Assembly (NCBI GenBank): GCA_965216255.1
Contig: OZ244148.1
Location: forward strand, 4,907,962 to 4,971,961
Source: Rhodothermales bacterium
GTDB taxonomy: Bacteria > Bacteroidota > Rhodothermia > Rhodothermales > Bin80
Length of the DNA: 64,000 nucleotides
Direction: 5' to 3'
Each line of letters starts with the position of its first letter. Positions within the stretch are counted from its first letter, which is position 1. A program made the position numbers and the translations under genes. Below the pieces are notes generated by a model. That model was not told where the DNA came from and ran no database searches. It saw nothing but the letters and a program-made list of their open reading frames with translations. Shown here piece by piece: positions 20,044 to 64,000 of the stretch.

Positions 20044-21291
20044 ATGAACGCGGAACAAAGTATGTACAAGTACGTGTCAATACCTGTGATACGCACCTAC
20101 ACATACCGGTGCCGACGGGTGAGAAAGACGCAGCGCGAAGCACTGGACGCGTTGTTTCGGCATCTGGCGTGGCTGCGCAATGACCCACTGCCGCAACGAG
20201 TTTGCCGAAGGCGGCAAGACGCCTTCCACCTTTGATCTGTACAAGAGGCTTACGGCCATGCGCCAGGACAATGCGCATAATGCGGCGTAGCCTGTGCGCG
20301 CCCAGCGCAGCATGCTCCAGCGCGTCCGCAGCGCCTACGACAAGTTCTTTGGCGAAGGCAAGGGCAGGCTAATATTCAAGCCGGAAGTGCGATCCTTTGA
20401 GTTCGAGGGCACCGTGCCGCGCAAGAACGGCCCGTACCATACGCTCCAGATAAAGGGCGTGGGCAAGCTGCGGTTCAATGACAAGCGCGGCGTACTCTCC
20501 GGCGGCAACACCGTCCGGCTGGTCCGCATCCTGCGACACCCTTTAGGCACCGGCTTCAACGTGCAGCTTGTTGTGCAGCATAACGTCGTGGTGGTCACGA
20601 CGGACACGCGCGAGGCCATAGGTGTCGACGTGGGCGTAAAGGCCAACTGTTCGCTCTCTGACGGCACGCAGTACGCGCCCTTGCGGTTGCCGGAGCGCAA
20701 GCGCAAACGCCTCCAGCAAGTCGTAAGCCGTGCCAAGCGCGGCAGCAAGACGCGCCGCAAAAAGAGGCTGGCCCTCACCCGCGAAAGCCGCAGCTTGGCC
20801 GTGCGCCGCCGCAGCGAAGTACACCGCATTACGACCGACATCGTGAAGATGCACTCCGCATGGATCGTCGTGGAAGACCTGAGACTCCAAGCCATGCCGG
20901 CCCGTGGCGGCTCCCGCAAACGTGGGCTGAACCGTTCTATGCACGAGAACTGCCTCGGCATGCTCATGCAGCAACTCTCCTACAAGGCTGAAAGCGCCGG
21001 AGGCGAGCTCGTGAAAGTAAAGCCGCATTATAGACGTGCAGTGCGTGCGGCGCTCTGGCAAAGGACCGGCTGACGCTGGCGGTCCGCACGTTCGTTTGTA
21101 GCGAGTGCGGGCACCGGCAGGACCGGGACGTTAATGCGGCCCGTAACATCCGTCTGAGGGGCATGGAGCTTTTCGGCAGGGCGGGAGGCCCTGCGTGTCG
21201 GACGGAGGCGGCTACGGCCGTAAACGTCGTGCCTCTGGCCGCGTCTTCGGACGCGTCTAAGCGCGGCCACGACACAGGATCGTGTAGCTAG
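20044..21291 (+). pseudogene. tnpB: TnpB (IS605/IS1341-type RNA-guided nuclease) pseudogene
   Basis: TnpB-like sequence is spread over two frames. The N-terminus IRTYTYRC...REALDALF is in frame 1, with a shift near 20180-20200 to ...RNEFAEGGKTPSTFDLYKRLTAMR. There is an in-frame TAG at 20288-20290. RuvC-I IGVDVGVK and RuvC-II WIVVEDL are present. A break at about 21031 (PHY|TAG|TCSACG) leads into the frame-1 tail TCSACG...VCSECGHRQDRDVNAARNI (zinc finger plus RuvC-III). Stop at 21289-21291. No TnpA is adjacent. Confidence 0.8.
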
Positions 21292-21321
21292 TGTAGTGTA
21301 GCAAATAAAGTAATGATTATA
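21291..21321. repeat. IS630 left terminal inverted repeat
   Basis: See the element entry; 24/31 match to the right IR. Confidence 0.75.
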
Positions 21322-21375
21322 TCCCACGAATTGGCTATCTTCGTTGCATCGTTCACACGAATAAATGGGGGAACC

Positions 21376-22044
21376 ATGCGGGTAGCAGTCAACATCGAGC
21401 TGTTGGAGGCGGACCGGCGGTGCCTGGAGCGGTGGTCGCGCTCGCGCAGTGCGTCGGTCCGGTTGCAGGAGCGGTCGCAGATGATGCTCATGGCAGCGGA
21501 CGGCATGACGAACAAGGCGATTGCCCAAGAGCTGGGCACGGACCAGAACAAGGTCGGCCGCTGGAGACGGCGCTTCGCCGACCAGGGGATGGAAGGGATT
21601 GCCAAGGAGCGCCCGCGGGGCGGTAACCACGGGGGCAAGTGCTCGAAGGCACAGGCGCAGCTCAGGACCAAGGTGATCCGTCTTACGACGCAGACCGAGG
21701 CGCCGGCTGCGACGCACTGGTCTTGCCGGTCGATGGCGCGTGCGGCAGGTACGACCCACAGCTTCGTGCACCGGGTGTGGCGCTCGTTGGGACTGAAGCC
21801 GCATCTGGTACGGACCTTCAAGGTGAGCACCGATCCGCACTTCGAGGAAAAGCTCCGGGACGTGGTTGGGCTGTATCTGAACCCGCCGGAGAACGCGGCG
21901 GTCTTCAGCTTTGATGAGAAGCGTTCGATCCAGGCGCTGGATCGAACGCAGCCGGGCCTGCCGCTGAAGAAGGGCCGCTGCGGGACCATAACGCACGACT
22001 ACAAGCGCCACGGCACCACGTCACTGTTCGCTGCGCTGGAGGTG
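21376..22044 (+). CDS. IS630-family DDE transposase, exon 1 (HTH region and first catalytic D)
   Basis: ATG 21376. Typical IS630 N-terminus (MTNKAIAQELGTDQNKVGRWRRRF) and FSFDEKRSIQAL. Family similarity stops abruptly at ...TTSLFAALEV (22044) and resumes at 22724. Confidence 0.8.
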
Positions 22045-22723
22045 GTGTGCCACGAGTGGCACGCAGGTGTTGTTCTTTAACATAGCTTGAGTGTTGCGTA
22101 ACTGCATTTAGGATGGGGGAAGGCCCCCCGCAGCCGTCGTACAGGCGGAGGCTGCAAACCACCGGCTGCTGCTTGACTTTAAGGGTTCGGTAGTGAGCGA
22201 GTCCGGAAAAGGCGGAGCAATGACTCTGTCAGGTATGGGCCATAGAGTCGAACGCAAGTGAACCGCTGACGAAGTGTCGAAAGTGCTTGGACGATGTCAA
22301 AACCGGGGTCTCATCTCTGCTCCGGGACGAGATCGGGAGGTGCCTGTTTATGGCCCGATCAGCATCCGGCATACAGGCGGCGAGAATATGGTCTGGGCCT
22401 AAATGCGGAACGTGGGAACCTGTCGGGGCGATGCCAAGGGAGACTCGCAAGCGGAGAACCCGCGAGCGATTGAGTACCAATGCGCTCCACGGGGGCGGAT
22501 CGGCTCGTAGTAGTGAAGAAGGTTCTGTAATGGAACTGGAGCGAAGGGGCCGACTCGGTCGGTGGAAGGAGCGGGGCAACCGCAAGGCGGGAGGACCTCG
22601 CTCAAGAAACAAGGGCCTGGCTGCTGGCTGGATTGGTAGCCGGGTGGGCCGAGAAGAGCCGTATGAGGCGAGAGTCTCACGTACGGTTCTGTGGGGGCCT
22701 GGAAATCTCCCGGGCTACCCGAC
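22045..22723 (+). ncRNA. ORF-less group II intron (679 nt)
   Basis: The 5' end is GTGTG (GUGYG consensus). Domain V is a textbook 34-mer at 22656-22689, GAGCCGTATGAGGCGAGAGTCTCACGTACGGTTC, with the AGC triad and a GAGA tetraloop. The domain VI-like helix has a bulged A at 22717 (GGGCTACCC), 7 nt from the 3' end ...GAC. A candidate EBS1 loop CATCTC (22312-22317) sits in a hairpin and is complementary, with one G-U pair, to the last 6 exon nt GAGGTG. Removal joins the two IS630 halves in frame. Confidence 0.85.
22656..22689 (+). ncRNA. Group II intron domain V (catalytic hairpin)
   Basis: GAGCCGUAU-GAGGC-GAGA-GUCUC-ACGUACGGUUC is a near-perfect match to the conserved domain V architecture. Confidence 0.9.
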
Positions 22724-23155
22724 GCCACGGGCCAGGTGATCGGCCAGACGTACAAGCGTCACCGTCACCGTCACCAGGAGGTGCTGAAGTTCCTTCGTCA
22801 GCTGGAGAAGGCCGTGCCCAAGAACCAGGAGATCCACATCATCCTGGACAACTACGCGACCCACAAGCACCCTAAGCTCATGGACTGGATCGAGCGGCAG
22901 AAGCGCATCTTCCTGCACTTTACGCCCACCAGCGCGTCGTGGCTGAACCTGGTCGAGCGATTCTTCGGCACGCTGACCGAGAAGCAGCTCCGCCGCGGCG
23001 TCTTCCATTCAGTACAGGATCTGGAGCGGCGTCTCAAGGACTACATCAAGACCTACAACGAGAATCCCCAGCCCTTGGTGTGGACAAAGACGGCAGAGGA
23101 GATTCTCAGGAAGGTAGCGCTGGCCAGGCAGGCGCTGGCCACTGTTTCGGTATAA
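22724..23155 (+). CDS. IS630-family DDE transposase, exon 2 (second D and E)
   Basis: Begins ATGQVIGQTYKRHRHRHQEVLKFL. Contains IHIILDNYATH and SWLNLVERFFG (DD..E). Exons 1 and 2 together give 366 aa, which is typical IS630 length. Confidence 0.8.
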   Translation, partial: ATGQVIGQTYKRHRHRHQEVLKFLRQLEKAVPKNQEIHIILDNYATHKHPKLMDWIERQKRIFLHFTPTSASWLNLVERFFGTLTEKQLRRGVFHSVQDLERRLKDYIKTYNENPQPLVWTKTAEEILRKVALARQALATVSV

Positions 23156-23181
23156 TCACTAATATATTTAGGACACTGCAC
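23151..23181. repeat. IS630 right terminal inverted repeat
   Basis: See the element entry; it overlaps the transposase stop codon (23153-23155). Confidence 0.75.
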
Positions 23182-23198
23182 TAGATGATTCATTTATC

Positions 23199-24991
23199 TA
23201 TATAGTGATTGACCGAATACTCTCTTTTTTCGGCCTCGAATGCACAGGCACGGTCGTTTTTTGAGTTCGTTGACGGTGCGCTTCGAGTGTTTCGGCCATG
23301 CTGGCGTCTCTTGCGTGCGCGCACGGACAGTTTGCGGCTCGAAGGGCGTTGTGTTCCTATCGGGAGGGCATACGTGTCCCTTGGGGCCTGCGATTGGGAC
23401 CTTTCTGCGAGGTGGTAGCGGGCCTACGCCGCGCGTTTTCGCCGACGCTTTATTCGTGCCCGTTCCTGGGCGCGCACCAGGCAACCCAGCCGGTGCACGT
23501 TGACTGCCAACACCGACAGGCTCACCATCAGCGCGAAGTTCTCCGGACTCTTCTGCCGCACCAGCGCACCGCCCCGAAGTCCGAAATTGGCCAGACACGA
23601 CTCGACGGCCGGGTGCTGCCGCCGCGCTGCCTTGAACGCAGGCGCGCGCTCCCGCGCACGCTCCGCCAGAGAAAGCTTGCCCTTCTTCGGAAGCGCATTG
23701 AGCGCCAGCCGAGCATCCAATGCTTTTCGATTCTTCAAGCTGTGAAAGCCCCGGTCAAAACTGCACGCATTGAACTCTGGAAAAGCCGCCTGCACCGCAT
23801 CAATGATCGGTACCGCCACCTCAACATCTGATGTGTCCCACAGGATGTGATAAGCCAAAATGAACCGGTGCTCATCTTCTACCAGTGCGACCGGAAGGCC
23901 CAACTCGGCCAGCACGCCCGCCTTGCCTTTGCTGATCCAACGCGTATGTGGCTTGTGGATGGAAAACACTTTCTGCGCATGTGGAATCATCTCGCCCAAG
24001 AGGATGCGACGCCTGATCCACCAACAAGTCCACATAGTGCAAGTAATACGCGATATCCGCTCGCGCCGCCGCCGATTTCTGCACCGTGGCCAAGGCATTC
24101 AACAGCGTACGGGCACGTGCTGCAGTCTGTGTGCACTGGCGCAAGTACGCCTTCACTCCTTTCGGATTCTGCCGGTAGCGCGGGGCCGTCCGCACCCGGA
24201 TGAAGGCCTGGTATATCTTCCGCGTGCGATCCGCATGCTTGCGCCAGCCCGGAAGAGCGAATGCCGCAGCCGAGCGTGTACTCACACGTATTAGACCACG
24301 AACCGCATCCCAGCACAGACCCACATCGGTGGGATAGTGCACATGCGTCTTAACCACCCTGGAATCGCAGCGACCACCTAGCGCGGTCCCAGACTCTTTT
24401 CCAGCCACCTTGTGCCCCGTCCGCACTATCAATTGGGTCACCTTCAGGACCAGCTTCGGCGTCAAAAGCTGCACGTTGTCCACCAGCCGCTGTCTGCTGT
24501 ACTTCACCTCGTCAAACCCGGCATCTCCGTGCCCCAAGAGCTCCCGCAGCAAGAGATCGTTGTTGGCCCGGTACAACAAAGCATCGTAGTCCAGATCCAG
24601 GCACTGCTTGACTATCGCAAACACGATGACGCGCCATAGATCCATGCCCGGTCGCCCGACATCTTTACGTTTACCCGGCTGAAAGTGCGCCTCCAGAATC
24701 GCGAACAAGGCCGCACGGGATTCCGCCGTGCAGTAGACGCACTGCAGACCCTTGAGCACCGCACTCATGTCGTCGCGCATTCTCGGGTCTATAGCAATCT
24801 CCCCAATCGGCGTACTGTCGAGTGCACGGCACTCTGGGACAATCTTGCGCATGGTTTCCCTGGCGAATGTGAGCTGTTTTGCGCTCTTAAACGCCCAAAT
24901 CGGCTATACGTCCCTCAGATTCACCGCCAATTGCAAGATATAACTGATTGTTTATTGAAGATTTAAAGTATTTTCGTACAAGCACTATATA
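23199..24991 (-). mobile_element. IS5/IS1182-like insertion sequence, copy 1
   Basis: Candidate terminal IRs: 23199-23222 TATATAGTGATTGACCGAATACTC against the reverse complement of 24968-24991, TATATAGTGCTTGTACGAAAATAC. About 1.8 kb. Boundaries are approximate and no clear target duplication was seen. Confidence 0.55.
23424..24852 (-). pseudogene. IS5/IS1182-like DDE transposase (DUF772-type N-terminus + DDE_Tnp_1), split over two frames
   Basis: The N-terminal ORF 23872-24852 contains GRPGMDLWRVIVFAIVKQCLDLDYDALLYRANNDLLLRELLG and DSRVVKTHVHYPTD. The C-terminal ORF 23424-24098 contains SFDRGFHS. The downstream frame is +1 relative to the upstream one. The homology-based switch is near 24040 (..HYVDLLVDQ | RRILLGEMIPH..). 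Confidence 0.7.
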
Positions 24992-24999: not shown

Positions 25000-27139
25000 T
25001 TCTTTCCTTTTTCGTCCCGGAGGTCATGCTAACCCAAGTTTAACATACATTTTTTAAGTAGCATATTTACCTATGGTTACAAGGTCACCTTTGTTCCTTC
25101 TGGCACTACAAACGGCCTCAAAGTGAATTTCGTGGCCTTGGATCAGATGGTAGTCTTGTGCATGAATAGGGGCGCCCGATCCACTCCCAGGGCGTCGTAC
25201 ATGCCCTTCAGTTCACTATCCGGCTGTGATGTCGTACGGACGTGCAGCGTATGCCCATCCCGGCACTGGAACACATTCGTAGAGCGGACCTGCCGCTGAA
25301 GGATGCGCCGCAGCGTCGTCCAGCTTGAGCGTAGGTCCTTACTCCTTAGCCGCGTACGAATCACCTGCACCAACTGGTAAGCCAGGACCGTGATGAACAG
25401 ATGGCCCTCCGCGCGCCGGCCTGTGGAATGATAGATCGGTCGCAGTCCGAGTTCCGACTTCAGGGACCGGAACACCGCTTCCAGATCGGTCAGCATCACA
25501 TACGTGCGCCAGAGCTCTTCCGCGGTGAACTCCATCTCGTTGCTGCGCAGGCAATAGACGCCCGGATCGGTCATCAACGCGGGTGCTTTCGGCGTCTTTG
25601 TCCACGTGATAGACTGGGCCCGCTTGCCGTCCTCATCCGTCTCCACTTCTATCTCGTAATGCTGTCCGATGCCGCTGAAGCTCTGCTTCAATCGGCCGAT
25701 ACGTTCCCTTATGAGGTCGATGCGCTTTTGCGTCTTCGGCCGGGCAAGCCGATCGGAAAGCTCGCCGAGGGCCTCCTCGAATCTTTCCGCTTTCTGCCTC
25801 ATCTTGGCCTCTTCCATCGCCATGCGGGACCGGGATCGGCAACAGAGCCGCACCTCGTCGTCTGCCTCCTCCCGGTACACCTCGACGTCACTGCCCGAGG
25901 CCATCTGAAGAGCCAGTGCCCGCTCCTGTTCAAAGGGCTTCCTGCGCTCTCTTGATACCACGATGTAGCGGTAGCCCTCCTCTCGCAGCCAGTCTATGCG
26001 GTCCTGTGTGGCAATGCCCCGGTCCATCACCACACGTGCGTCCCTGGGCGTCTCCAGGGACTCCAGCATCTCCTTGAGCGTGGACGCTTCGTTTACGTTG
26101 CCCTTGAAGACCTGGCTACGACGCACGAACCCGCTGCCGCGCGTTACAAGAGCCAGCGTAAGCAGCGCGCAGTCACTGCGACGCTCCTTCGAGCGTGCGT
26201 ACTTGGCCTTGTCGATGCTCTTGCCACTGCCTTCCAGGAAGCTGCCCTTCAGATCATAGAGCGCGATCGTGGGCTCCAGATCAAACAGGTCCAGCGCCCG
26301 TGCAAAGAGGTGGTCCTCTATGGCCTTGCGGTGTTTGTGCAGCATGTCGCTGGCCCGGTACAGCTGCATGTCGGCCATCTTCTCGAAGTTGCAGCCCAGA
26401 AACTCGTCCAGGCCACTGGCAGAGGCCAGCCAACGCTTCGTGGCATGTTCGCTGGCCGGCTCGGCCAGACGGCCTATGATGGAGCCCGTGGCCGCATGCC
26501 GGAGGCCTCGCGTGATGCCAAGCTTCTCGAAGAGCTCATCCATGCCCAACTGCTCCATGGCCCAGAGCCCCACATGTTCTACGCTCACCGTGCGGGGCCG
26601 GACCGTTTTGAGCGAGTGGACATCCACATGGTGCCATTCGCGCGGCGGCGTCTCGCCCTTGCCCTCGGTCACGGCTACCGCCTTGCGCGCGCTCAAAAGT
26701 TCTGCAATGCGGTGGGCCTCCTCTTCCACGCGACGGCAGGAACGCCCATGGGAACGAGTTCGAGCTGGCCCTTGAGCAGTGCCTCAATCCGGCTGCAGAG
26801 CGCACGCCAGTAGCGTTTGTCGATGCGGAAGTGGGCACCGAGATTGAGCAGGGTCTTCTGCCGGACCTTGCCCCCTATGCGTTCGCCGTGACAAAGGCGA
26901 AAGGAATAGTAGCGTGTAGCGTCGTCGGTGGTTCGGGTAAGCGAGCGTCGGATATACATAGAGGGGAAGATAGGGCTGGGGGGCGTTGTTCGCAATAGCC
27001 GTCAACACTTTATGGCACAACATTCGTATTCCCGCCTCTGTGAATCCCAAAAACGGGGCGCTGGTGGGACCAAACACCAGAAAATCCGGCCAAACAGGGC
27101 CACAAGTGGGGCCACATCCCTAACAAGCCGCCAAAATAC
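25000..27139 (-). mobile_element. IS1634-family-like insertion sequence (boundaries approximate)
   Basis: It encloses the IS1634-like transposase. It lies between the right end of IS5/IS1182-like copy 1 and the truncation point of copy 2. I could not define the ends by inverted repeats. Confidence 0.4.
25143..26959 (-). pseudogene. IS1634-family-like DDE transposase with a -1 frame break
   Basis: N-terminus from ATG 26959: MYIRRSLTRTTDDATRYYSFRLCHGERIGGKVRQKTLLNLG. The frame changes near 26730-26770 into the 528-aa ORF, which has LYDLKGSFLEG, VVMDRGIAT and FRSLKSELGLRPIYH...GHLFITVLAYQL. The total of 1817 nt is not a multiple of 3. Confidence 0.7.
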
Positions 27140-29196: not shown

Positions 29197-32100
29197 ATGG
29201 CTGGAGTGTGGCGTAGTTACGTAATGCCGTGTTGGCAGGCATGGCGACTTCGGCTTGGCGTGGTCATCACGGCCGTGCTGCTGAGTGGTTTGGGCGCGTG
29301 GAAGGGCGATGCGCCGGTGCTGACGGTGACGGGTGAGAGCAAGGAGGAGGCGACCGGCCTGCTGACGTTCACGCTCACGCTGGATGCTCCGAGCACGAGT
29401 GACATAGAGCTGACGTATGCTACGGCGGACGTCACGGCGACGGCGGGGGCGGACTATGTGGGAGTGCCAGCGGGCAGTTTCACGATAAAGGCGGGCACGA
29501 GGGATACGACTATAGCCGTGCAGATGAAGCACGATGGTCGTGACGAGGAGGACGAGGCGTTCGAGCTGACTGTGACGGCGGGGAATGCCGGTGAGATAGG
29601 GTCGGGTTCGGTTTTGAGGGCAGTGGGCACGATTCTGGACAATGACGACGCGCCGGTGCTGAGGGTGGCGGGTGAGACCAAGGTGGAGTCGGACGGCCTG
29701 CTGACGTTCACGCTCACGCTGGATGCTCCGAGCGGGAGTAACATAGATCTGACGTATGCTACGGAGGATATCACGGCGACGGCGGGACTGGACTATGTGG
29801 AAAAGGCGGGCAGTTTCACGATAAATGCGGGCACGCTGGAAACGACGCTGGCAGTGCGGATGAAGAACGACTGGCGTGACGAGCCGGACGAGACGTTCGA
29901 GCTGACTGTGACGGCGGGGAATGCCGGTGAGATAGGGTCGGGTTCGGTTTTGAGGGCAGTGGGCACGATCCTGGACGAGGATCGAGCGCCGGTGCTGACG
30001 GTGACGGGTGAGAGCCAAGAGGAGGCGGACGGCCCGCTGACGTTCAAGCTCACTCTGGGTGCTCGGAGCGGGTATGACATAGAGCTGACGTATGCTACGG
30101 TGGACGTCACGACGACGGCGGACCTGGACTATGAGGCAGAGCCAGCGGGCACTTTCACAATAAAGGTGGGCGAGCGGATTGTGTATTTGCCGGTGCAGAT
30201 GAAGGAAGACTTTCGTGACGAGGAGGATGAGACGTTCGAATTGACTATGGTGGCGGTGGATCCCTCTAAGGTACGGCAGAATTCGGTATTGACGGCAGTG
30301 GGGACGATTCTGGACGATGACACAGCGCCGGTGCTGACGGTGACGGGTGAGAGCCAAGAGGAGGCGGACGGCCCGCTGACGTTCAGGCTTACGCTGGATG
30401 CTCGGAGCGGGCATGACATAGGGCTGACGTATGCTACGGCGGATGTCACGGCGACGGCGGGACTGGACTATGCGTCCGTGGCAGCGGGCAGTTTCATGAT
30501 AAAGGCGGGCACGCTGGATACGACGCTGGCGGTGGGGATGAAGAATGACTTACGTGACGAGCCGGACGAGACGTTCAAGCTGACTATGGCGGCGGTGAAT
30601 GCCGGTGAGATAGGGTCGGGTTCGGTATTGACGGCAGTGGGCACGATCCTGGACGAGGACCGACCGCCGGTGCTGAGGGTGACGGGTAACAGCAAGGAGG
30701 AGGCGGACGGCCCGCTGACGTTCATGCTCAGTCTGGGTGCTCGGAGCGGGTATGACATAAAGCTGACGTATGCTACGGTGGACGTCACGGCGACAGCGGA
30801 CCTGGACTATGAGGGAGAGGCAGCGGGCAGTTTCACAATAGAGGCGGGCACGCGGTTTAAGACGTTGGCGGTGCAGATGAAGGAAGACTCACGCGACGAG
30901 GTGGACGAGACGTTCAGGCTGACTGTGGCGGCGGTGGATGCCACTAAGATACGGCAGAATTCGGTATTGACAGCAGTAGGGACGATTCTGGACGATGACT
31001 CAGCGCCGGTGCTGAGGGTGACGGGTCAGAGCAAGGAGGAGGCGGACGGCCCGCTGACGTTCACGCTCACGCTGAATGCTCCGAGCACGCGTGACATAGG
31101 GCTGACGTATGCTACGAGGGACGTCACGGCGACGGCGGGAGCGGACTATGATGGAGAGGCAGCGGGCAGTTTCACGATAAAGGAGGGCACGCGGGATACG
31201 ACGCTGGCGGTGCAGATGAAGGAAGACCTACTTAACGAGGTGGACGAGACGTTCGAGCTGACTGTGGAGGCGGTGAATACCGGTGAGATAGGGTCGGGTT
31301 CGGTCTTGACGGCAGTGGGTACGATTCTGGACGATGACTCAGCGCCGGTGCTGAGGGTGACGGGTCAGAGCAAGGAGGAGGCGAACGGCCCGCTGAGGTT
31401 CACGTTCACGCTGGATGCTGTGAGCACGCGTGACATAGAGCTGAGGTATGCTACGGCGGACGTTACGGCGACGGCGGGGGCGGACTATGATGGAGTGCCA
31501 GCGGGCAGTTTCACGATAGAGGCGGGTACGCTGGATACGACGCTGGCGGTGCAGATGAAGGAAGACGCACTTGACGAGGAGGACGAGACGTTCAAGTTGA
31601 CTGTGACGGCGGTGAAGCCCGGTGAGATAGGGTCGAGTTCGGTCTTGAGCGCTGTGGGCACGATTCTGGACAATGACGCAGCGCCGGTGCTGAGGGTGAC
31701 GGGTCAGAGCAAGGAGGAGGCGGACGGCCCGCTGACGTTTAAGCTTACGCTGGATGCTGTGAGCGCGCGTGACATAGAGCTGACGGTTACTACGGCGGAG
31801 GTCACAGCGACGGCGGAGGCGGACTATGAGGAAGCGGCAGCGGACAGGGTAACGATAGAGGCGGGCACGCAGGTTACGACGCTGGCGGTGCAGATGAAGG
31901 AAGACGCACTTGACGAGGAGGACGAGACGTTCGAGCTGACTGTGACGGCGGTGAATCCCGATGTGATAGGGCCGAGTTCGGTCTTGAGCGCTGTGGGCAC
32001 GATTCTGGACAATGACGCAGCGCCGGTGCTGAGGGTGACGGGTGAGAGCCAAGAGGAGACGAATGGCCCGCTGACATTCACGCTCACGCTGGATGCTGTG

Positions 32101-35100
32101 AGCGGGCGTAACATAGAGCTGACATATACTACGGAGGACATCACAGCGACGGCGGGACTGGACTATGAGGGAGCGGCAGCGGACAGGGTAACGATAGAGG
32201 CGGGCACGCAGGTTACGACGCTGGCGGTGCAGATGAAGGACGACGAACTTGTCGAGGAGGACGAGACGTTCGAGCTGACTGTGGCGGCGGTGGATGCCGA
32301 GGAGATAGGGGCGCGTTCGGTCCTGACGGCAGTGGGCACGATTTGGGACAAGCCCATCGTTACCTTGAGTGTGAATCCGGGCGTTGTGGCCGAAGGATCC
32401 GGAACGACAGATATATATGTAACGGCTACTCTTTCTGCCGCCCGGACTGTTCCTACGATCATTACGCTGTCGTTTGGTGGCACTGCAACCCTTGGACCTG
32501 GATCGGATTATGAAGTGGCGCCGGCATCCCCCGAGATAACGGTTCCGTTAGCCACTACATCCGGGCAGGTCGTTATTTCCTTGACTGTGGTTGACGATAC
32601 CTTTTATGAGAATATCGGGAGTGACGCCTTCGAAATCATTTTAGTGCAAGGCAGTAATACAGACGGTCTGCAGGTTGAATCGGCAGAGTTCAAGCTGAAT
32701 GACAACGACACTGAAATCCCTAGCGTTGAACTGACTGTTGAGCCGAGTTATTTGGCACTGGACGAGGGTGAGAGCGGCACGATCTCCTTTAGTCTGGTGT
32801 TGGTGGGAGAGAACCAGAACAGGTTCGAGAATGATGCCGAATTCACGGGCGACATTATACAAATTGGAGAACTGGAACACGGGGAGGACTACACGACAGA
32901 CCCGGAGGACTGGCTTCCCATAATTCTTCCGGCTGGTGCCATTTCGGTATCCAAGGACGTAGAGTTCGAGATTATTGACGATGATATTAGTGAAGGACAG
33001 TACGAATCGCTGACCTTGCTGAATATGGAGCTGGTTGCCCATAATCTGCGTATTCCCGTGAGCAGGGCAGGACACAGTACGACCATTTTATCCGTGAGTC
33101 CAAGCGACGAAGAAAACCGTCTTAATATAGCAATCGAACCCACAGGGGGAATCCGCGAGAACGCAGGGCCGACTGAAATAGAACTGTTTGCTACCCCATT
33201 TTTTACAGGGAGTGAATTTGAAGACCCTCCCGAAGAAGATCTTACGATACGTTTCTGGATAGAGCAAATCCCTGGCGGGGCACTCAGCCCAGATGATTAT
33301 TCGATTGTTCCTGAGGTTATTCCTCGAGTCGATTGGACTCAGGGAGAGACCGAGTCCGAACGTGTCACATTAACGGTAACGCCTGTAGCGGATGATGTCC
33401 ATACCGAGAATTACCATGAGCGTATACGCATTAAAGGCCAAGTGACGAATGCTTCGGGGTATCAGGGTCTTACCACCACATCCCTGAGTATTATCAATGT
33501 TTCGCCGCCGGCATTGAGAACGGTCGGTATTGATCGGCCCCCCAACCATCCGACAATCTATTTCTTTGGGGAAGAGTTAACGGCGAAAATGAGCTTTTCG
33601 CAGCCGGTTGGATTGCGGGGCCAAGGCATGACCTTTACTGTCGATCTTGATAGTGGTCCTGTTGTCGCCAAATGTTTGCCAGGGGGTACTGGTTACGGCG
33701 CTCATATATCGTGCACCTATACCATACAGGCAGGAGACTCGGATGTCGATGGTGTGGAAATCAAAGCCGGGGCCATCAATCTAGGTGGCGCCAGTATGGT
33801 CGATGAGGAAGGCAATGCTGTTACGATTAATTTTACGATTCTTGACAAGTATTTGAAGCGGTATGATTACCAGGTTCAGGGTACGAGCTATGTGTATGAG
33901 CTAGTGCCGTCGGTGGAGAGCTTTCAGGAAGGTCAGAACGCTACTAGGGAGGTTGTTGTCACAGCTACGGAGAAGTTGGGCAAGGTTAGAGAATTCAATG
34001 CCGCGATAGAGCTTTTCTTCAGGAATGAGACGACCAGCGATCAGGATTATGTGGTGACGGGGGAGCGGACCATCAACATTGTGGCCGGAGAAACCACCGG
34101 CAGCACGACGCTTGAGATCACGCCGACGTTCGACGGAATTAAGGAAGGCCACGAGGAGGTCTTCTTCCTGGACGGGGACGCGGGTCACCAGGCTGTAGAG
34201 CCCTATGAGATGAAGATACTGGATGCGCCGGACATCTTTCTGGCGGTGAGTCCTGAGACCATCCAGGAAGATGGTGATGCCGAAACGGTGACGATAACGG
34301 CGAGCCTTCCAGCGAATGCTATCACGTTTGATGAGGGCATTGTGGTGAATCTGCGGCAGGCGGGCACGGCAACGAAAGGAAGCGATTTCACCATCGGGTC
34401 TTTGCCAGAAGTGCGCATTTTAGCGAACGAGACTTCGGGATTCGGCAGTGTTGTAGTAACACCGATCAATGATAATCTGGTGGAGGGGGATGAGACGATT
34501 TTTTTCTATGGCTCAACGGCAAGCCTCGGAGTAACCGGAACCAATCTGGAGCTCCAGGACGACGATAGCGAGGCGGGCATAATCTTGTCGGTGGACAATA
34601 GCCGGGTTGGGGAAGCTGATGGCGAGACTGTTATCGAGGTGACGGCGACAGCGACAGTGACGTTTCCGCTGGGTGTTGACGTGAGTTTGGACCTCGGTGG
34701 CCAGGCAACGGAAGACACAGACTATACCAGGCACTGGGATCCGGGAGCGACCATCAGTATTGCTCGGGGCGCATCTACCGGAACGACGAATCTGGAGATC
34801 ACGCCGGTAGACGACGATATTCTGGAAGGCGACGAGACGATCGTTGTGCAGGGCACCGCGGACAACGGTGTGTCTGTAGAGGTGGCGCCGATCACATTGT
34901 CGGACAATGATCGCGCAAGAATATTGAAGATCACCGGGACTCTGCAGGTGGTTGAGGGGACGGGTGACGAAACTGGTAGCAATAATGGGCATACCGATAT
35001 CACTGTCAGCTTGAGCCCACGGCCAGGAAGTGATAATATTTCTGTGCCTGTGACCTTTATCGCCGGTACGGCAACGGGCGGAGGGCAATTAGCTTACCGG

Positions 35101-38100
35101 GATCCCTTCAATACCGAGGCGGACTATGCGGGTTTTCGTGAGGGGACCACTCTTACTTTTGAAAAGGAGACCCCTACCCAAAGCTTCCGATTACGTATGG
35201 TACCGGACCGCAGGGACGAAGATGACGAGACGTTTACGCTCGTTCTCCAGATTCCGGGCCAGCCGGGATCGAGGACTAGTGCCACGTTTACCATTCTTGA
35301 CGACGACGACCCGCCGGTGATTTCCTTTGTGGAAGACGCAGCCGGGAGCGAGGATGTGGGGCAATTGGTGTTTCCGGTGAGTCTTGACGTGGAAAGCGGC
35401 AGGAGGATACGCGTGCTCTATGATGTGGTGGATGTCACGGCAACGGAGCTGTTGGACTACACGGCGGAGGGCAACGGGGAATTGGAGTTCGAGCCCGGCG
35501 AAACGGAGCAGACCATCACCGTACGCATAGAGGATGATCTGTTGGATGAGGACGACGAGACGTTTACGGTGGTGTTGAAGGAGCCGGAGAACGTGACACT
35601 CGGCGACTTCGAGGCGACGGGCACGATAGAGGACAACGACGGTGCGCCTGAAGTCATTGTCGAGAATGCGAGTGGAGAGGAAGCAGCGGGGAGCATCAGT
35701 TTCTTTGTGCGTCCAAGCCATCAGTTCAGCAAGGACATCAGCGTGGACTATACTGCCACGACCGAGGCGGGCAATACGGCTACCGAGGGTGAGGATTACG
35801 TGGCAGTAACGCAGCCGGTGACGCTCACGATTCCAGCCGGCAGTCGCGGCGAGTGGATTGCGGTGACGATAACGGACGACTTTGTAGACGAGGATAACGA
35901 GACGTTTACGGTAACGCTGTCGAACCCGATGAATGCGAGTGTGGGCTCGGCAACGGCAACGGGCACCATATTGGATGATGAAGATCTCTCACTGCGCATT
36001 GATCCGGCACAGGCGAGCGAAATCGTGGGTGAAATCATTTTTGTTGTAACCATGAATTGGCCGAGCACCAAGACGATCAAGGTACAGGCTAAGACGCTCG
36101 ACGGGGCGGATGATACGGCGGAGGAGGATGTTGACTACGACAAGACGAGCGAGTTGTTGACTATTCTTCCGCTAGAGCTCGCCCAGTCTTTTGCGGTAAC
36201 CATAAATGATGACCTCTTCGATGAGGCCGACGAGACGTTCACGGTAGTGTTGAGTAATGAGGAGAATGTTTCGTTGTCCGCTGCGGAGGCGACGGGCACG
36301 ATCCTGGACGATGACGCAGCGCCGGTGCTGACGGTGGCGGGTGAGAGCAAGGAGGAGGCGGACGGCCCGCTGACGTTCACGCTGACTCTGGATGCTATGA
36401 GCGCGCGTGACATAGAGCTGACGTATGCTACGAAGGATGTTACGGCGACGGCGCAACTGGACTATGTGGAACCGGAAGCGGGCAGTATCACGATAGAAGC
36501 AGGAGATCAGGCGGCGACGATAGCGGTGCAGATGAAGGAAGACGAACTTGACGAGCAGGACGAGACGTTCGAGCTGACTGTGGCAGCGGTGGATGCCGAT
36601 GTGATAGGGTCGCGTTCGGAATTGAAGGCTGTGGGTACGATAGAGGACGATGACGAAGTGCCGGAGGTGAGCATAGCGAATGCGGATCCGGTAATGGAGG
36701 GAGGCGCGGCGGAGTTCACGTTGACGCTGAGTGCGCAAAGCGGCCAGAACGTGACGGTATCCTATGGGACGGAGGATGGGTCGGCTGTGGCGCCGGGGGA
36801 CTATGAGGTGAAGCGCGGTAGGGTGACGATACCGGCGGGCAAGACGGAGGCGGTGATAGTGGTGCGAACGGAGGACGATGACCAGGATGAAGTGGATACA
36901 GAGACGTTTACGGTGGTCCTCAGCGCGCCGGTGAATGCGACACTGGATGAGGCTGAGGGCACGGGCACGATAGAGGACAATGACGAAGTGCCGGTGGTGA
37001 GTATAGAGGATGCGCCTTCGGTGACGGAAGGAGGGGATGCGGTGTTTGCGGTGAAGCTGAGTGTGGCAAGTGGCCAGGAGGTGACGGTGCAGTATGCGAC
37101 ATCGGACGCTACCGCGACGGAGGGGCAAGACTACAATGCGGCGCAGGGCGAAAGCCTGGTGATACCGGCGGGCAATACGGAGGCGACGATAGTGGTGGAG
37201 ACGAGCGACGATCTGCTGGATGAGGATACGGAGACGTTCACGGTAGTCCTCAGCTCGCCGGAGCATGCGACGCTGGATGCGGATGCGGATGAGGGCACGG
37301 GCACGATAGAGGACAATGACGATGCGCCGACGGTGAGTATAGAGGATGCGCCTTCGGTGACGGAGGGCGTGGATGCGGTGTTTGCGGTGAGGCTGAGTGT
37401 GGCAAGTGGCCAGGAGGTGAGGGTATCGTACTCGACGGTGGATGTTACGGCAACGGGAGGGCGGGACTACAGGGCGGCAGTAGGCGGAAGCCTGGAGATA
37501 CCGGCGGGCAGTACGGAGGCGACGATAGTGGTGGGGACGATAGACGATTCGGTGGATGAGGATACGGAGACGTTCACGGTGGTCCTCAGCTCGCTGGAGC
37601 ATGCGACGCTGGATGCGGATAAGGGTGAGGGCACGGGCACGATAGAGGACAATGACGAAGTGCCGACGGTGAGTATGGAGGATGCGCCTTCGGTGACGGA
37701 GGGCGTGGATGCGGTGTTTGTGGTGAGGCTGAGTATGGCAAGCGGCCAGAAGGTGACGGTGCAGTATGCGACATCGGACGCTACCGCGACGGCGGGACTG
37801 GACTACTATGCGCCAGTAGGCGGAAGCCTGGAGATACCGGTGGGCAGTACGGAGGCGACGATAGTGGTGGGGACGATAGACGATGATCTGGATGAGGAGG
37901 ATACGGAGACATTCACACTGGTCCTCAGCACGCCGGAGCATGCGACGCTGGATGCGGATAGGGGCACGGGCACGGGCACGATACTGGACAATGAGGATGC
38001 GCCGACGGTGAGTATAGAGAATGCGGAGGCGGTGACGGAGGGCGTGGATGCGGTGTTTGCGGTGAGGCTGAGTATGGCAAGCGGCCAGAAGGTGACGGTG

Positions 38101-39468
38101 CAGTATGCGACATCGGACGCTACCGCGACGGCGGGGCAGGACTACTATGCGCCAGTAGGCGGAAGCCTGGAGATACCGGCGGGCAGTACGGAGGCGACGA
38201 TAGTGGTGGGGACGATAGACGATGATCTGGACGAGGAGGATGCGGAGACGTTCACGGTGGTCCTCAGCACGCCGGAGCATGCGACGCTGGATGCGGATAG
38301 GGGCACGGGCACGATACTGGACAATGACGAAGTGCCGACGGTGAGTATAGAGGATGCGCCTTCGGTGACGGAAGGAGGGGATGTGGTGTTTGTAGTGAAG
38401 CTGAGTGTGGCAAGCGGCCAGGTGGTGAGGGTGCCATATGAGACATCGGACGCTACCGCGACAGCAGGGCAGGACTACGAGGCGGCGTTAGGCGGAAGCC
38501 TGGTGCTACCGGCGGGCAAGACGGATACGACCATAGTGGTGAGGACGATAGACGATGATCTGGATGAGGAGGATACGGAGACGTTTACGGTGGCCCTCAG
38601 CGCGCCGGAGCATGCAACGCTGGATGCGGATAAGGGTGTGGGCACGGGCACGATAGAGGACAATGACGAAGTGCCGACGGTGAGTATAGAGGATGCGCCT
38701 TCGGTGACGGAAGGAGGGGATGTGGTGTTTGCGGTGAAGCTGAGCGAGGCAAGTGGCCAGGAGGTGACGGTGCCGTATGCGACATCGGACGTTACGGCAA
38801 CGGTGGGGCAAGACTACAATGCGGCGCAGGGCGAAAGCCTGGTGGTGATACGGGCGGGCAATACGGAGGCGACGATAGTGGTGGGGACGATCGACGATGT
38901 GCTCTCGGAGGAGACGGAGACGTTCACGTTGACGCTGCAGGATCCTGTGGGCGCGGATTTGGCTGTGGGCGGTGCAATGGGCACGGGCACGATACTGGAC
39001 AATGACGATGCGCCGACGGTGAGTATAGGGGATGCGCCTTTGGTGACGGAGGGCGTGGATGCGGTGTTTGCGGTGAAGCTGAGCGAGGCAAGTGGCCAGG
39101 AGGTGACGGTGCCGTATGCGACATCAGACGCTACCGCGACGGCGGGGCAGGACTACGATGCGGTGGTGGGCGGCAGCTTGGTGATACCGGCGGGCAAGAC
39201 GGATACGACGATAGTGGTGGGGACGATCGACGATGCGCTCTCGGAGGAGGCGGAGACGTTTGTATTGACGTTGGAGGAACCAGAGGGCGCGGATTTGGCA
39301 GTGGGCGCTGCCGTGGGCACGGGCACGATAGAGGACAATGACGATGCGCCGACGGTGAGTATAAAGGATGCGCCTTTGGTGACGGAGGGTGTGGATGCGG
39401 TGTTTGCGGTGAAGTTGAGCGAGGCAAGTGGCCGTGAGGTGACGACAATGACGATGCGCCGACGGTGA
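29197..39468 (+). CDS. Giant Calx-beta tandem-repeat surface protein, N-terminal 3,423 codons (ends at a stop created by a scrambled repeat junction)
   Basis: Signal-like N-terminus (alternative ATG 29224: MPCWQAWRLRLGVVITAVLLSGLGA). This is followed by about 30 Calx-beta-type units, e.g. VSIEDAPSVTEGGDAVFAVKLSVASGQEVTVQYATSDATATEGQDY...ETFTVVL...GTGTIEDND. The TGA at 39466-39468 follows an aberrant junction. Confidence 0.85.
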   Translation: MAGVWRSYVMPCWQAWRLRLGVVITAVLLSGLGAWKGDAPVLTVTGESKEEATGLLTFTLTLDAPSTSDIELTYATADVTATAGADYVGVPAGSFTIKAGTRDTTIAVQMKHDGRDEEDEAFELTVTAGNAGEIGSGSVLRAVGTILDNDDAPVLRVAGETKVESDGLLTFTLTLDAPSGSNIDLTYATEDITATAGLDYVEKAGSFTINAGTLETTLAVRMKNDWRDEPDETFELTVTAGNAGEIGSGSVLRAVGTILDEDRAPVLTVTGESQEEADGPLTFKLTLGARSGYDIELTYATVDVTTTADLDYEAEPAGTFTIKVGERIVYLPVQMKEDFRDEEDETFELTMVAVDPSKVRQNSVLTAVGTILDDDTAPVLTVTGESQEEADGPLTFRLTLDARSGHDIGLTYATADVTATAGLDYASVAAGSFMIKAGTLDTTLAVGMKNDLRDEPDETFKLTMAAVNAGEIGSGSVLTAVGTILDEDRPPVLRVTGNSKEEADGPLTFMLSLGARSGYDIKLTYATVDVTATADLDYEGEAAGSFTIEAGTRFKTLAVQMKEDSRDEVDETFRLTVAAVDATKIRQNSVLTAVGTILDDDSAPVLRVTGQSKEEADGPLTFTLTLNAPSTRDIGLTYATRDVTATAGADYDGEAAGSFTIKEGTRDTTLAVQMKEDLLNEVDETFELTVEAVNTGEIGSGSVLTAVGTILDDDSAPVLRVTGQSKEEANGPLRFTFTLDAVSTRDIELRYATADVTATAGADYDGVPAGSFTIEAGTLDTTLAVQMKEDALDEEDETFKLTVTAVKPGEIGSSSVLSAVGTILDNDAAPVLRVTGQSKEEADGPLTFKLTLDAVSARDIELTVTTAEVTATAEADYEEAAADRVTIEAGTQVTTLAVQMKEDALDEEDETFELTVTAVNPDVIGPSSVLSAVGTILDNDAAPVLRVTGESQEETNGPLTFTLTLDAVSGRNIELTYTTEDITATAGLDYEGAAADRVTIEAGTQVTTLAVQMKDDELVEEDETFELTVAAVDAEEIGARSVLTAVGTIWDKPIVTLSVNPGVVAEGSGTTDIYVTATLSAARTVPTIITLSFGGTATLGPGSDYEVAPASPEITVPLATTSGQVVISLTVVDDTFYENIGSDAFEIILVQGSNTDGLQVESAEFKLNDNDTEIPSVELTVEPSYLALDEGESGTISFSLVLVGENQNRFENDAEFTGDIIQIGELEHGEDYTTDPEDWLPIILPAGAISVSKDVEFEIIDDDISEGQYESLTLLNMELVAHNLRIPVSRAGHSTTILSVSPSDEENRLNIAIEPTGGIRENAGPTEIELFATPFFTGSEFEDPPEEDLTIRFWIEQIPGGALSPDDYSIVPEVIPRVDWTQGETESERVTLTVTPVADDVHTENYHERIRIKGQVTNASGYQGLTTTSLSIINVSPPALRTVGIDRPPNHPTIYFFGEELTAKMSFSQPVGLRGQGMTFTVDLDSGPVVAKCLPGGTGYGAHISCTYTIQAGDSDVDGVEIKAGAINLGGASMVDEEGNAVTINFTILDKYLKRYDYQVQGTSYVYELVPSVESFQEGQNATREVVVTATEKLGKVREFNAAIELFFRNETTSDQDYVVTGERTINIVAGETTGSTTLEITPTFDGIKEGHEEVFFLDGDAGHQAVEPYEMKILDAPDIFLAVSPETIQEDGDAETVTITASLPANAITFDEGIVVNLRQAGTATKGSDFTIGSLPEVRILANETSGFGSVVVTPINDNLVEGDETIFFYGSTASLGVTGTNLELQDDDSEAGIILSVDNSRVGEADGETVIEVTATATVTFPLGVDVSLDLGGQATEDTDYTRHWDPGATISIARGASTGTTNLEITPVDDDILEGDETIVVQGTADNGVSVEVAPITLSDNDRARILKITGTLQVVEGTGDETGSNNGHTDITVSLSPRPGSDNISVPVTFIAGTATGGGQLAYRDPFNTEADYAGFREGTTLTFEKETPTQSFRLRMVPDRRDEDDETFTLVLQIPGQPGSRTSATFTILDDDDPPVISFVEDAAGSEDVGQLVFPVSLDVESGRRIRVLYDVVDVTATELLDYTAEGNGELEFEPGETEQTITVRIEDDLLDEDDETFTVVLKEPENVTLGDFEATGTIEDNDGAPEVIVENASGEEAAGSISFFVRPSHQFSKDISVDYTATTEAGNTATEGEDYVAVTQPVTLTIPAGSRGEWIAVTITDDFVDEDNETFTVTLSNPMNASVGSATATGTILDDEDLSLRIDPAQASEIVGEIIFVVTMNWPSTKTIKVQAKTLDGADDTAEEDVDYDKTSELLTILPLELAQSFAVTINDDLFDEADETFTVVLSNEENVSLSAAEATGTILDDDAAPVLTVAGESKEEADGPLTFTLTLDAMSARDIELTYATKDVTATAQLDYVEPEAGSITIEAGDQAATIAVQMKEDELDEQDETFELTVAAVDADVIGSRSELKAVGTIEDDDEVPEVSIANADPVMEGGAAEFTLTLSAQSGQNVTVSYGTEDGSAVAPGDYEVKRGRVTIPAGKTEAVIVVRTEDDDQDEVDTETFTVVLSAPVNATLDEAEGTGTIEDNDEVPVVSIEDAPSVTEGGDAVFAVKLSVASGQEVTVQYATSDATATEGQDYNAAQGESLVIPAGNTEATIVVETSDDLLDEDTETFTVVLSSPEHATLDADADEGTGTIEDNDDAPTVSIEDAPSVTEGVDAVFAVRLSVASGQEVRVSYSTVDVTATGGRDYRAAVGGSLEIPAGSTEATIVVGTIDDSVDEDTETFTVVLSSLEHATLDADKGEGTGTIEDNDEVPTVSMEDAPSVTEGVDAVFVVRLSMASGQKVTVQYATSDATATAGLDYYAPVGGSLEIPVGSTEATIVVGTIDDDLDEEDTETFTLVLSTPEHATLDADRGTGTGTILDNEDAPTVSIENAEAVTEGVDAVFAVRLSMASGQKVTVQYATSDATATAGQDYYAPVGGSLEIPAGSTEATIVVGTIDDDLDEEDAETFTVVLSTPEHATLDADRGTGTILDNDEVPTVSIEDAPSVTEGGDVVFVVKLSVASGQVVRVPYETSDATATAGQDYEAALGGSLVLPAGKTDTTIVVRTIDDDLDEEDTETFTVALSAPEHATLDADKGVGTGTIEDNDEVPTVSIEDAPSVTEGGDVVFAVKLSEASGQEVTVPYATSDVTATVGQDYNAAQGESLVVIRAGNTEATIVVGTIDDVLSEETETFTLTLQDPVGADLAVGGAMGTGTILDNDDAPTVSIGDAPLVTEGVDAVFAVKLSEASGQEVTVPYATSDATATAGQDYDAVVGGSLVIPAGKTDTTIVVGTIDDALSEEAETFVLTLEEPEGADLAVGAAVGTGTIEDNDDAPTVSIKDAPLVTEGVDAVFAVKLSEASGREVTTMTMRRR
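29311..32346 (+). repeat. Tandem array of about 9 type-A Calx-beta units (336-339 nt each)
   Basis: Unit APVL(T/R)VTG(E/Q)SKEEADGPLTFTLTLDA.S..DIELTYAT.DVTATAG.DY...AGSFTI.AGT.DTTLAVQMKED..DE.DETFELTV.AV....IGS.SVLTAVGTILD(D/N)D. One further copy lies at about 36310-36650. Confidence 0.85.
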
Positions 39469-39632
39469 GTATAGAGGATGCGGATCCGGTGACGGAGGGA
39501 GAGGATGCGGTGTTTGCAGTGAAGCTGAGCGTGCCATAGGGGCAATTTGGCTGTGGCCGTGAGGCAGGGGCACGATAGAGGACAATGACGATGCGCCGAC
39601 GGTGAGTATAGAGGATGCGGATCCGGTGACGG
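39445..39632 (+). other. Scrambled mosaic of repeat fragments that breaks the giant ORF
   Basis: At 39444/39445 the repeat jumps from ...GAGGTGACG straight to ACAATGACGATGCGCC, out of frame. The 39530-39575 stretch is a patchwork of 10-30-nt pieces of the unit (GTGCCATAGGGGCAATTTGGCTGTGGCCGTGAGGCAGGGGCACG). At 39632/39633 GTGACGG joins CGACATCGG. Confidence 0.8.
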
Positions 39633-62078: not shown

Positions 62079-62092
62079 GGTAATATCGTCTC

Positions 62093-63637: not shown

Positions 63638-64000
63638 TCCCCCATTGCCCTGGACGAACTCCAAGTGCCGAATCACAGCCAAAATACGACATGTGTCGTG
63701 CCGCCGTACACCTCGTCGAGGCAGGTCGCCATCTCGGATAGAGCCCCCTTGGTTCGCAGCGAATGGCCAAGGGCCAAGCCTGAATTACCGTTTTGGCCTA
63801 GGAAGGTTACACAAATAACGAGATATCTCGGTTTGGAGGCCCTAAGTACAATGTTTTTTTGGCTCGTACTGTCAGTAGTACGGTGGACTCATAGATACAG
63901 TACCACAGTAATGGGTAACCACCTGCTCACTCTGTCCGCATTGATCCGCCAGGATCGTTTGCCCGTGCTGTGCTCCGAAATCGACTTGTAACCTGATTCG

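Follow-up and report, generated by a model that had tools for sequence, protein, structure and literature searches.

The closest described system to the intron presented here is RmInt1 of Sinorhizobium meliloti, which resides in the insertion sequence (IS) ISRm2011-2 of the IS630-Tc1 family. Herein, a group II intron without an open reading frame (ORF) is described that interrupts the transposase gene of an IS630-family element in a Rhodothermales bacterium (assembly GCA_965216255.1, contig OZ244148.1, positions 4,907,962 to 4,971,961 of the forward strand); this whole stretch of 64,000 nucleotides (nt) is called the window, and all positions refer to it unless another locus is named. The two introns share their class, as judged by a domain I (D1) of the RF01999 type and by the class D lineage of intron-encoded proteins (IEPs). 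Both lie in sense orientation inside an IS630-family transposase frame, where stop codons of the intron make splicing a precondition for transposase. For RmInt1, it was argued that inefficient splicing limits the dispersal of the IS (PMC4238363). However, RmInt1 contains its own reverse transcriptase (RT)/maturase of 419 amino acids (aa), whereas the domain IV (D4) of the window intron consists of 100 nt without an ORF. Its pair of exon-binding site (EBS) and intron-binding site (IBS), EBS1 UUUCGUC and IBS1 GAUGAGA, is also unlike that of the window, as is its host phylum; the relatives of the window IS and of its intron point to Rhodothermales/Gemmatimonadota-like bacteria. The main differences from RmInt1 are the missing ORF and the host lineage; intron class, IS family, and splicing logic were already known. 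An earlier reading of this DNA, made from the sequence only, had concluded that a ribozyme gates a transposon. The splicing dependence in this statement holds, but its novelty does not, as such gating was already proposed and tested for RmInt1 in ISRm2011-2 (PMC4238363). The intron is a natural counterpart of the engineered delta-ORF constructs of RmInt1 and would add a second, independent example of an IS630-family transposase under the control of a class D intron, with an additional dependency on a helper encoded elsewhere.

ORF-less introns are also described from other hosts. Examples include the class CL introns of the cyanobacteria Thermosynechococcus elongatus and Trichodesmium (gene dnaN), which resemble the window intron in that related ORF-containing introns exist. 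The Trichodesmium dnaN introns are spliced in trans by the RIR-intron maturase (PMC12584367, PMC4424553), and the ORF-less introns of T. elongatus are reported to be spliced and mobilised by a trans-acting IEP (PMC2882425). These systems differ from the window intron in class (CL as opposed to D) and in the endonuclease domain that CL IEPs commonly contain. The Trichodesmium hosts are housekeeping genes, whereas the host in the window is a transposase gene and the trans-acting helper is a putative one. The intron C.te.I1 of Clostridium tetani likewise is an ORF-less group II intron in a protein-coding gene (PMC4424553). It differs in being a self-splicing intron that also undergoes alternative splicing and in lacking a related IEP in its genome. 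The window intron has kept the DIVa hairpin, and many relatives within its lineage encode an IEP. The nested introns of Methanosarcina home into related introns (PMC4424553), as do siblings of the window intron (into D1 hairpins and after D5). The window copy, in contrast, lies in a protein-coding exon and is not nested.

Intron boundaries and the interrupted transposase gene

The element in the window is an ORF-less group II intron that interrupts an IS630 transposase gene within the region coding for the DDE domain and has the orientation of this gene; the identity of the intron together with the exon junction is practically certain. The whole 64 kb were scanned with Rfam at curated gathering thresholds. 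On the forward strand, model RF01999 (group-II-D1D4-2) matches positions 22115-22234 with 104.1 bits (E 2e-20) and model RF00029 (D5/D6) positions 22654-22723 with 65.3 bits (E 1e-10), both over the full model length. The two matches fall in the canonical order and spacing of a group II intron, and beyond this pair no further group II intron match was found in the 64 kb at these thresholds. The 5′ exon ends with ...GCGCTGGAGGTG at 22044, and the first bases of the intron are GTGTGCC from 22045 onward. The intron ends with ...GGGCTACCCGAC (...CGAC) at 22723, and exon 2 begins with GCCACGGGCCAGGTG at 22724. Hence, the rule for group II termini (5′ GUGYG, 3′ AY) is followed, with GUGUG at 22045-22049 and ...CGAC up to 22723. 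An exact DNA scan of the JGI metagenomes gave no match to the 5′ junction and none to the first 25 nt of the intron.

When 22044 is joined to 22724, the frame continues with GCC ACG GGC CAG GTG and yields a product of 366 aa with Pfam helix-turn-helix (HTH) domains and DDE_3. The NCBIfam IS630 equivalog NF033545 matches the spliced form only, with 241.9 bits (cutoff 100) at profile positions 2-299 of 299. A tblastn search of the window with the spliced protein places aa 1-223 at 21376-22044 with 100% identity; by this search and by Rfam, no second copy of the IS or of the intron is found in the 64-kb window. Relatives of the protein were sought among 5.8 billion proteins, in which thousands of matches were obtained. 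The best uninterrupted ones are 94-95% identical and 364 aa long, and an alignment with 11 uninterrupted homologues contains no gap at ...LFAALEV/A[TS]GQVIG.... The best homologue (L081, ENA sample ERZ25067264) is encoded by a copy of the same IS that lacks the intron and represents the empty site. Its junction reads GGAAGTA/GCCTCG as compared with GGAGGTG/GCCACG in the window. Of the three differences, the two synonymous ones fall within IBS1, which is GGAAGUA in L081 and GGAGGUG in the window.

Without splicing, the frame meets a stop codon at 22078-22080, 36 nt or 12 codons into the intron, and the product comprises 234 aa with the HTH domains and the first catalytic aspartate (D) but without the second D and the glutamate (E) of the DDE triad. 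Because the ORF ends at 22080, ahead of these two residues, synthesis of the transposase needs splicing. One may speculate that the truncated 234-aa protein acts as an inhibitor. For annotation, this means that the transposase "fragments" at 21376-22080 and 22691-23155 are one intron-split gene and not pseudogenes, and that gene callers predict spurious ORFs within the intron. The sequence-only reading had placed a 679-nt intron with a GTGTG start at 22045-22723, had joined 22044 and 22724 in frame to a 366-aa DDE transposase whose expression depends on splicing, and had seen no RT/maturase ORF in the intron. The splice reconstruction, the Pfam and NCBIfam matches, the stop codon in the unspliced frame, the 100-nt D4, and the internal ORF (22287-22739), which has no Pfam match, agree with it on each of these points. 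A covariance-model search and a comparison with intron-less IS630 junctions, both of which it had named as checks, turned out in its favor, the former with RF01999 and RF00029 and the latter with the gap-free alignment across 22044/22724.

It is hardly conceivable that the element is a non-functional unit, namely, a chance likeness, an intron fragment, a circular permutation, or an assembly artefact. Two independent Rfam models match with E <=1e-10 in canonical order and spacing, 30 relatives of the same size align over the whole length, and the junction is base-exact in comparison with uninterrupted homologues. No support for such an artefact was found, with the related ENA contigs being low-coverage long-read assemblies (2-5x). 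A circularly permuted intron and a twintron are both ruled out for the window copy, which contains one D1 and one D5/D6 in canonical order. Another IS630 locus with 500 extra bases (L041) was rejected as an intron and consists of two adjacent IS copies.

The terminal inverted repeats of the IS are imperfect and approximately 32 bp long, with GTGTAGTGTAGCAAATAAAGTAATGATTATA on the left and the reverse complement of ...TATAATCACTAATATATTTAGGACACTGCAC on the right. They were recognized by eye, and an inverted-repeat tool run on the IS reported no repeat of 14 nt or more. The intron-less relative L081 has the same ends. IS630 elements duplicate TA at their target, often within CTAG, and both copies of TA are seen in the window (Table 1). 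In exon 2, positions 22757-22774 contain three tandem CGTCAC units, as opposed to two in L081. The extra unit is in frame and adds Arg-His (KRHRHRHQ), which is missing from all 11 aligned homologues; it is probably a slippage duplication.

Architecture of the intron RNA

Relatives were searched for in GTDB contigs (one genome per species) with a pattern that combined two motifs conserved in D1 with the beginning of D5 at ORF-less spacing. The consensus fold was calculated with RNAalifold from 14 ORF-less sequences with canonical ends, the window included. It consists of 178 pairs, of which 116 show compensatory double changes. In an independent count, 96.9% of the cells are paired, compared with 38-44% when the partners are slid by one to three columns, and none of 500 shuffled controls reaches the observed values on any measure. 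The fold comprises six covarying domains, in line with the D1-D6 architecture on which the sequence-only reading had staked its case. The canonical domain V (D5) that it had recognized at 22656-22689 is covered by RF00029 over the full model, with the AGC triad, a 2-nt bulge, and a GNRA loop (GAGA). The bulged A that it had noted 7 nt from the 3′ end is A22717, the seventh base from the end. The basal helix of D4 (helix 24) shows compensatory changes in all seven pairs. In ORF-containing relatives, D4 carries the RT/maturase ORF of 419-441 aa. The coordinates of all domains and of the surrounding IS are given in Table 1.

Table 1. Coordinates of the IS630-family element, its transposase exons, and the intron with its domains and exon contacts
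Feature	Position	Strand	Description
IS630-family insertion sequence	21291..23181	+	1891 bp, 1212 bp without the intron; inverted repeats, NCBIfam IS630 transposase
TA target-site duplication, left copy	21289..21290		inside CTAG; ...gtagCTA/GTGTAG
TA target-site duplication, right copy	23182..23183		...GCAC/TAG
Transposase exon 1	21376..22044	+	aa 1-223; HTH domains and first catalytic D (...FSFDEK...LFAALEV)
Transposase exon 2	22724..23155	+	aa 224-366; ATGQVIG..., second D and E of the DDE triad; stop codon 23153-55
Predicted ligated-exon junction			GCGCTGGAGGTG/GCCACGGGCC
ORF-less group II intron, class D (IIB3) type	22045..22723	+	679 nt; Rfam, covarying consensus fold, class D relatives
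IBS2 GCGCU	22033..22037	+	exon -12 to -8; 5 bp with EBS2 AGUGC, one G-U
IBS1 GGAGGUG	22038..22044	+	exon -7 to -1; pairs with EBS1 CAUCUCU
EBS2 AGUGC	22282..22286	+	in loop AAAGUGCUUGGA
EBS1 CAUCUCU	22312..22318	+	11-nt loop of hairpin 22303-22325 (stem 22303-22308 / 22320-22325)
Domain I	22050..22415	+	closing helix CCACG 22050-54 / CGUGG 22411-15; 100% paired, 3 of 5 pairs compensatory
Domain II	22416..22496	+	every predicted pair formed in the window (hand check)
Domain III	22500..22553	+	every predicted pair formed in the window (hand check)
Domain IV	22554..22653	+	100 nt, no ORF; basal helix CUCGGUC 22554-60 / GGCCGAG 22647-53
DIVa-like hairpin	22573..22599	+	pseudo Shine-Dalgarno GGGAGGA 22589-22595; GCU 22600-02 at the position of the relatives' IEP start codon
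Domain V	22656..22689	+	34-nt hairpin; AGC triad 22657-59, GAGA tetraloop; RF00029, helix 28
Domain VI	22692..22720	+	branch-point A22717
Private G-to-A change	22361	+	breaks a conserved pair with C22298

Assignment to the class D lineage

As far as the RNA and its relatives tell, the intron descends from the class D (IIB3) lineage through loss of the ORF (delta-ORF). RF01999 also matches an intron on the megaplasmid pSymA of S. meliloti (L246, with a 419-aa IEP named ltrA), with 123 bits as compared with 104 for the window. In blastn, positions 51-505 of the window intron align with multi-copy introns on the S. meliloti megaplasmids at 71.5% identity. An ORF-containing intron of Pseudomonas (L150) has matching D1-D3 and a 422-aa ORF, and two introns from Rhodothermales metagenome-assembled genomes (MAGs), L198 and L173, have the D1-D3 architecture of the window intron and ORFs of 441 and 435 aa. 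Herein, the ORFs contain the RVT_1 and GIIM domains and no endonuclease, and the IEP of L198 is 62% identical to that of L246. The C-terminal motif LX3AX3PXLF[V/A]HW of class D was defined for RmInt1, RmInt2, and Sr.md.I1 (PMC4615759). It is present in these IEPs except for the Pro, which is replaced by Ser in L198 (LIERARRDSGLFVHW) and by Thr in L246 (LERIARRQTGLFAHW). The RF01999 match, the common D1-D3, the IEP identity, and the C-terminal motif together lead to the class D assignment. The window intron encodes no IEP in which the motif could be sought, and its own class membership is that of the RNA.

The pSymA intron L246 (L246:2451-4330) is inserted in the YADD codons of the RT gene of an RF02005-type intron. 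L246 is a relative of RmInt1 but not RmInt1 itself, because its EBS1/IBS1 pair, AGUCGUU/GACGACU, is unlike the published RmInt1 pair and because it homes into the RT gene of another intron. Hence, the class D assignment is based on the IEP motif and on similarity and not on RmInt1 itself.

Exon-binding sites and arrival of the intron

EBS1 and IBS1 form five Watson-Crick and two G-U pairs, with a possible eighth pair (G-U) to U22037. The hairpin loop CATCTC at 22312-22317, for which the sequence-only reading had proposed complementarity to the exon end GAGGTG, is herewith identified as EBS1, as the loop covaries with the respective 5′ exon in six relatives (L082, L083, L107, L117, L127, and L132). 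EBS1 and exon read AGGCGUG/CACGCCU in L082, GGUCCCU/GGGGAUC in L083, AGUAUC/GAUACU in L117, and CGUACC/GGUACG in L132. For EBS2, covariation of the loop with the exon is seen in L082 (ACGCUU/AAGCGU) and in L083.

When the ORF inside the intron was used as a protein probe, sibling copies of approximately 97% identity were retrieved from ENA metagenomes. Two of these, L243 and L244, are surrounded by other flanks and contain another EBS1 and EBS2. In L244, EBS1 CUCCGCU and EBS2 GUACA stand beside the exon ...UGUACAGGCGGAG and face GGCGGAG and UGUAC, respectively. In the window, EBS1 CAUCUCU and EBS2 AGUGC stand beside the exon ...GCGCUGGAGGUG. Between window and L244, EBS1 shows a double compensatory change at each of the exon positions -2 and -5, and the few differences between the two introns lie in the EBS loops and fit the respective exon. 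L244 interrupts the D1 hairpin of a further member of the family, and this site is empty in L249 and L248. Read from the sequences, this pattern is the signature of retrohoming with retargeting by a protein-less element.

Because EBS1 and EBS2 of the window copy are tuned to its exon and near-identical siblings elsewhere have their own matching EBS1 and EBS2, the intron probably arrived at its site by mobility with an IEP acting in trans. Herein, a class D IEP of another intron in the same cell would have carried out reverse splicing and reverse transcription into the site. Six copies in OY760427 add no support for mobility in trans, with several of them being truncated or mismatched to their flanks.

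Trans-acting helper protein and splicing of the window copy

DIVa is described as a potential primary binding site of the IEP (PMC4615759). The corresponding hairpin can be compared between L246, ...GGTCAACCGGCAACGGGAGGAACCTCATG, and the window, GGGGCAACCGCAAGGCGGGAGGACCTCGCT; in L246, the start codon of the IEP follows the hairpin GGUCAACCGG-CAA-CGGGAGGAACCUC. In the ORF-less relatives, the hairpin (helices 26-27) is conserved with covariation. That this docking site is kept although the ORF is lost is best explained by an IEP that would be used in trans for both splicing and mobility. Cooperation between related class D IEPs and RNAs was shown experimentally (PMC4615759), and a trans-acting IEP is regarded as the general rule for bacterial ORF-less introns (PMC4424553). 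Rhodothermales MAGs commonly contain class D IEP genes. OY760427, OZ253559, and OZ244626, which contain ORF-less copies, are absent from the best 80 of more than 548 class D IEP matches, an absence that is uninformative.

Splicing in vivo would thus need a class D IEP in trans as maturase, and this IS copy would yield transposase only from productively spliced mRNA in the presence of such a maturase and would be silent in all other cases. As a whole, the explanation by a class D delta-ORF intron that arrived and is spliced by means of a trans-acting IEP and renders the transposase conditional is judged to be moderately probable. Alternatively, the intron could splice in vivo independently of any protein, as proposed for C.te.I1 of C. 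tetani, which self-splices robustly in a genome without an IEP gene (PMC4424553). The RNA fold of the window intron is complete, and delta-ORF constructs of RmInt1 self-splice in vitro (PMC4238363). Yet the conservation of a covarying IEP-binding hairpin in introns that have lost the ORF is difficult to understand if no protein binds to it, group II introns usually need non-physiological salt for self-splicing (PMC4238363), and relatives encoding class D IEPs are abundant in the same bacterial orders. Protein-independent splicing is therefore considered improbable.

Several observations weigh against trans-assisted splicing of this copy or against parts of the structural assignment. Neither Rfam nor Pfam reveals an RT/maturase gene in the 64-kb window, and the IS is surrounded by clustered fragments of mobile elements, in whose company dead copies tend to accumulate. 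The EBS1-IBS1 duplex holds two to three G-U pairs, and EBS3/IBS3 was not located, with no alignment column seen by eye to covary with the base of the 3′ exon. The distal helix of domain VI (D6) is approximately 6-7 nt shorter in the window than in the relatives; the sibling ENA contigs are the 2-5x assemblies mentioned above, in which small indels such as this difference could be sequencing errors. The pair of A22361 (columns 267-333) is CG in 13 of the 14 sequences and is unpaired in the window alone, and the siblings L243, L244, L248, and L249 have G at this position. For RmInt1, less than 1% of the exons are ligated in vivo (PMC4238363), so that even an intact class D intron may give little transposase.

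A dead end is conceivable as well, in which the intron was inserted by a trans-acting IEP and has since lost splicing, through disappearance of the helper or through its own mutations. The IS630 copy would then be an inactivated relic, whose exons are intact through recency. The private mismatch at A22361 and the shortened D6, the window without an IEP gene, and the surrounding IS junkyard (a TnpB fragment, split ORFs, and more transposases) would fit such a course, as would the related ORF-less copies in other genomes, which frequently are truncated or nested or do not match their flanks. L245, in another IS630 gene, pairs at four of six positions with its exon. However, the catalytic elements of the window copy are all intact (GUGUG, AGC triad, D5 bulge, GNRA loop, branch-point A, and 3′ AC). 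Its Rfam scores (104.1 and 65.3) are on par with those of the siblings (103.5 in L244 and 66.2 in L243), both exons are free of stop codons and frameshifts, the IS ends and the TA duplication are intact, and EBS1 and EBS2 fit the exon of the window and not that of the sibling. A dead end is hence held to be rather unlikely. A22361 and the shortened D6 may affect the competence of the intron for splicing, and the chances that the window copy is still spliced in vivo appear evenly balanced.

ORF-less relatives in other genomes

The pattern search retrieved 57 same-sized ORF-less elements in 53 stretches of MAG and isolate DNA. Some genomes contain six to nine copies, with nine being the maximum. 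The copies are found in MAGs and, in a few cases, isolate genomes, namely of Rhodothermales, other Bacteroidota, Nitrospiraceae, Acidobacteriota, several deltaproteobacterial orders, Methylococcales, and Fibrobacter. ORF-less introns in bacteria were held to be few in a 2015 review (PMC4424553). The available part of a 2022 survey reports an increase of ORF-less introns in certain genomes and, within that part, no analysis of an ORF-less class D family. The present counts suggest that uncultured lineages contain ORF-less bacterial introns more commonly than was apparent from surveys of cultured genomes (PMC4424553). Tentatively, with the odds somewhat against it, the elements may form a large undescribed population of non-autonomous ("MITE-like") class D introns, each of approximately 650-700 nt and reduced to a ribozyme with DIVa, that would be spliced and retro-mobilised by IEPs in trans, retargeted via EBS1/EBS2, and spread over at least six phyla, often in multi-copy nested arrays. 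If true, this would contradict the textbook view of bacterial ORF-less introns as rare and immobile. IS630 transposase genes would then be recurrent landing sites (the window and L245), and a DNA transposon would depend for its activity on a protein that a retroelement encodes.

L245 (L245:3597-4263, on a 1.29-Mb contig of ENA ERZ25069580) is a second, independent ORF-less class D-type intron in an IS630 transposase gene. Relative to the homologous position of the window site, it is inserted 23 nt farther downstream (...ATGKVIGR^CCKRH...), and it pairs poorly with its exon, with four of six EBS1 pairs formed.

In the MAG of an uncultured delta proteobacterium, three ORF-less introns of the D1D4-2 type are arranged head to tail approximately 640 nt apart (L094:939-2932). 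Herein, the D6 end ...CTACCCGGC passes straight into TTGCGC... of the next copy, with neither GUGYG nor an exon in between. Twintrons are frequent; L111, L131, and L094c are inserted after GGTGAGCGTTRAT in the D1 of a sibling. An RF02003-type intron, starting with GTGTGTCCAG, follows right after the D5 of ORF-less copies in three unrelated MAGs (L085, L130, and L131).

The plasmid pCP301 of Shigella flexneri contains an element of approximately 870-940 nt (L247:1985-2851), in which RF01999 matches D1, RF00029 matches D5/D6, and the segment between them holds no RT gene. It is also present in about 175 Shigella/E. coli plasmids and is annotated as hypothetical proteins only. From its sequence, it looks like another ORF-less class D-type intron, located on virulence plasmids.

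Neighborhood in the window

Upstream of the IS630 element, positions 20294-21073 encode a 259-aa fragment of OrfB_IS605 (TnpB). Downstream, two overlapping ORFs of 224 and 326 aa without a Pfam match (23424-24852, reverse strand) look like a split gene and are followed by a 528-aa DDE_Tnp_1 transposase (25146-26729, reverse strand). Two adjacent giant ORFs of 3423 and 4947 aa (29197-39468 and 39602-54445) contain 15 and 41 Calx-beta repeats, respectively, as well as LapA-like segments, and presumably encode huge surface adhesins. An IS66 transposase is encoded at 55019-56083 (reverse strand). Type I restriction-modification genes, including HsdM (529 aa), occupy 60058-63682 on the reverse strand; the HsdS-like protein encoded therein carries an N-terminal nucleotidyltransferase domain (Polbeta/NTP_transf_2), an unusual fusion.

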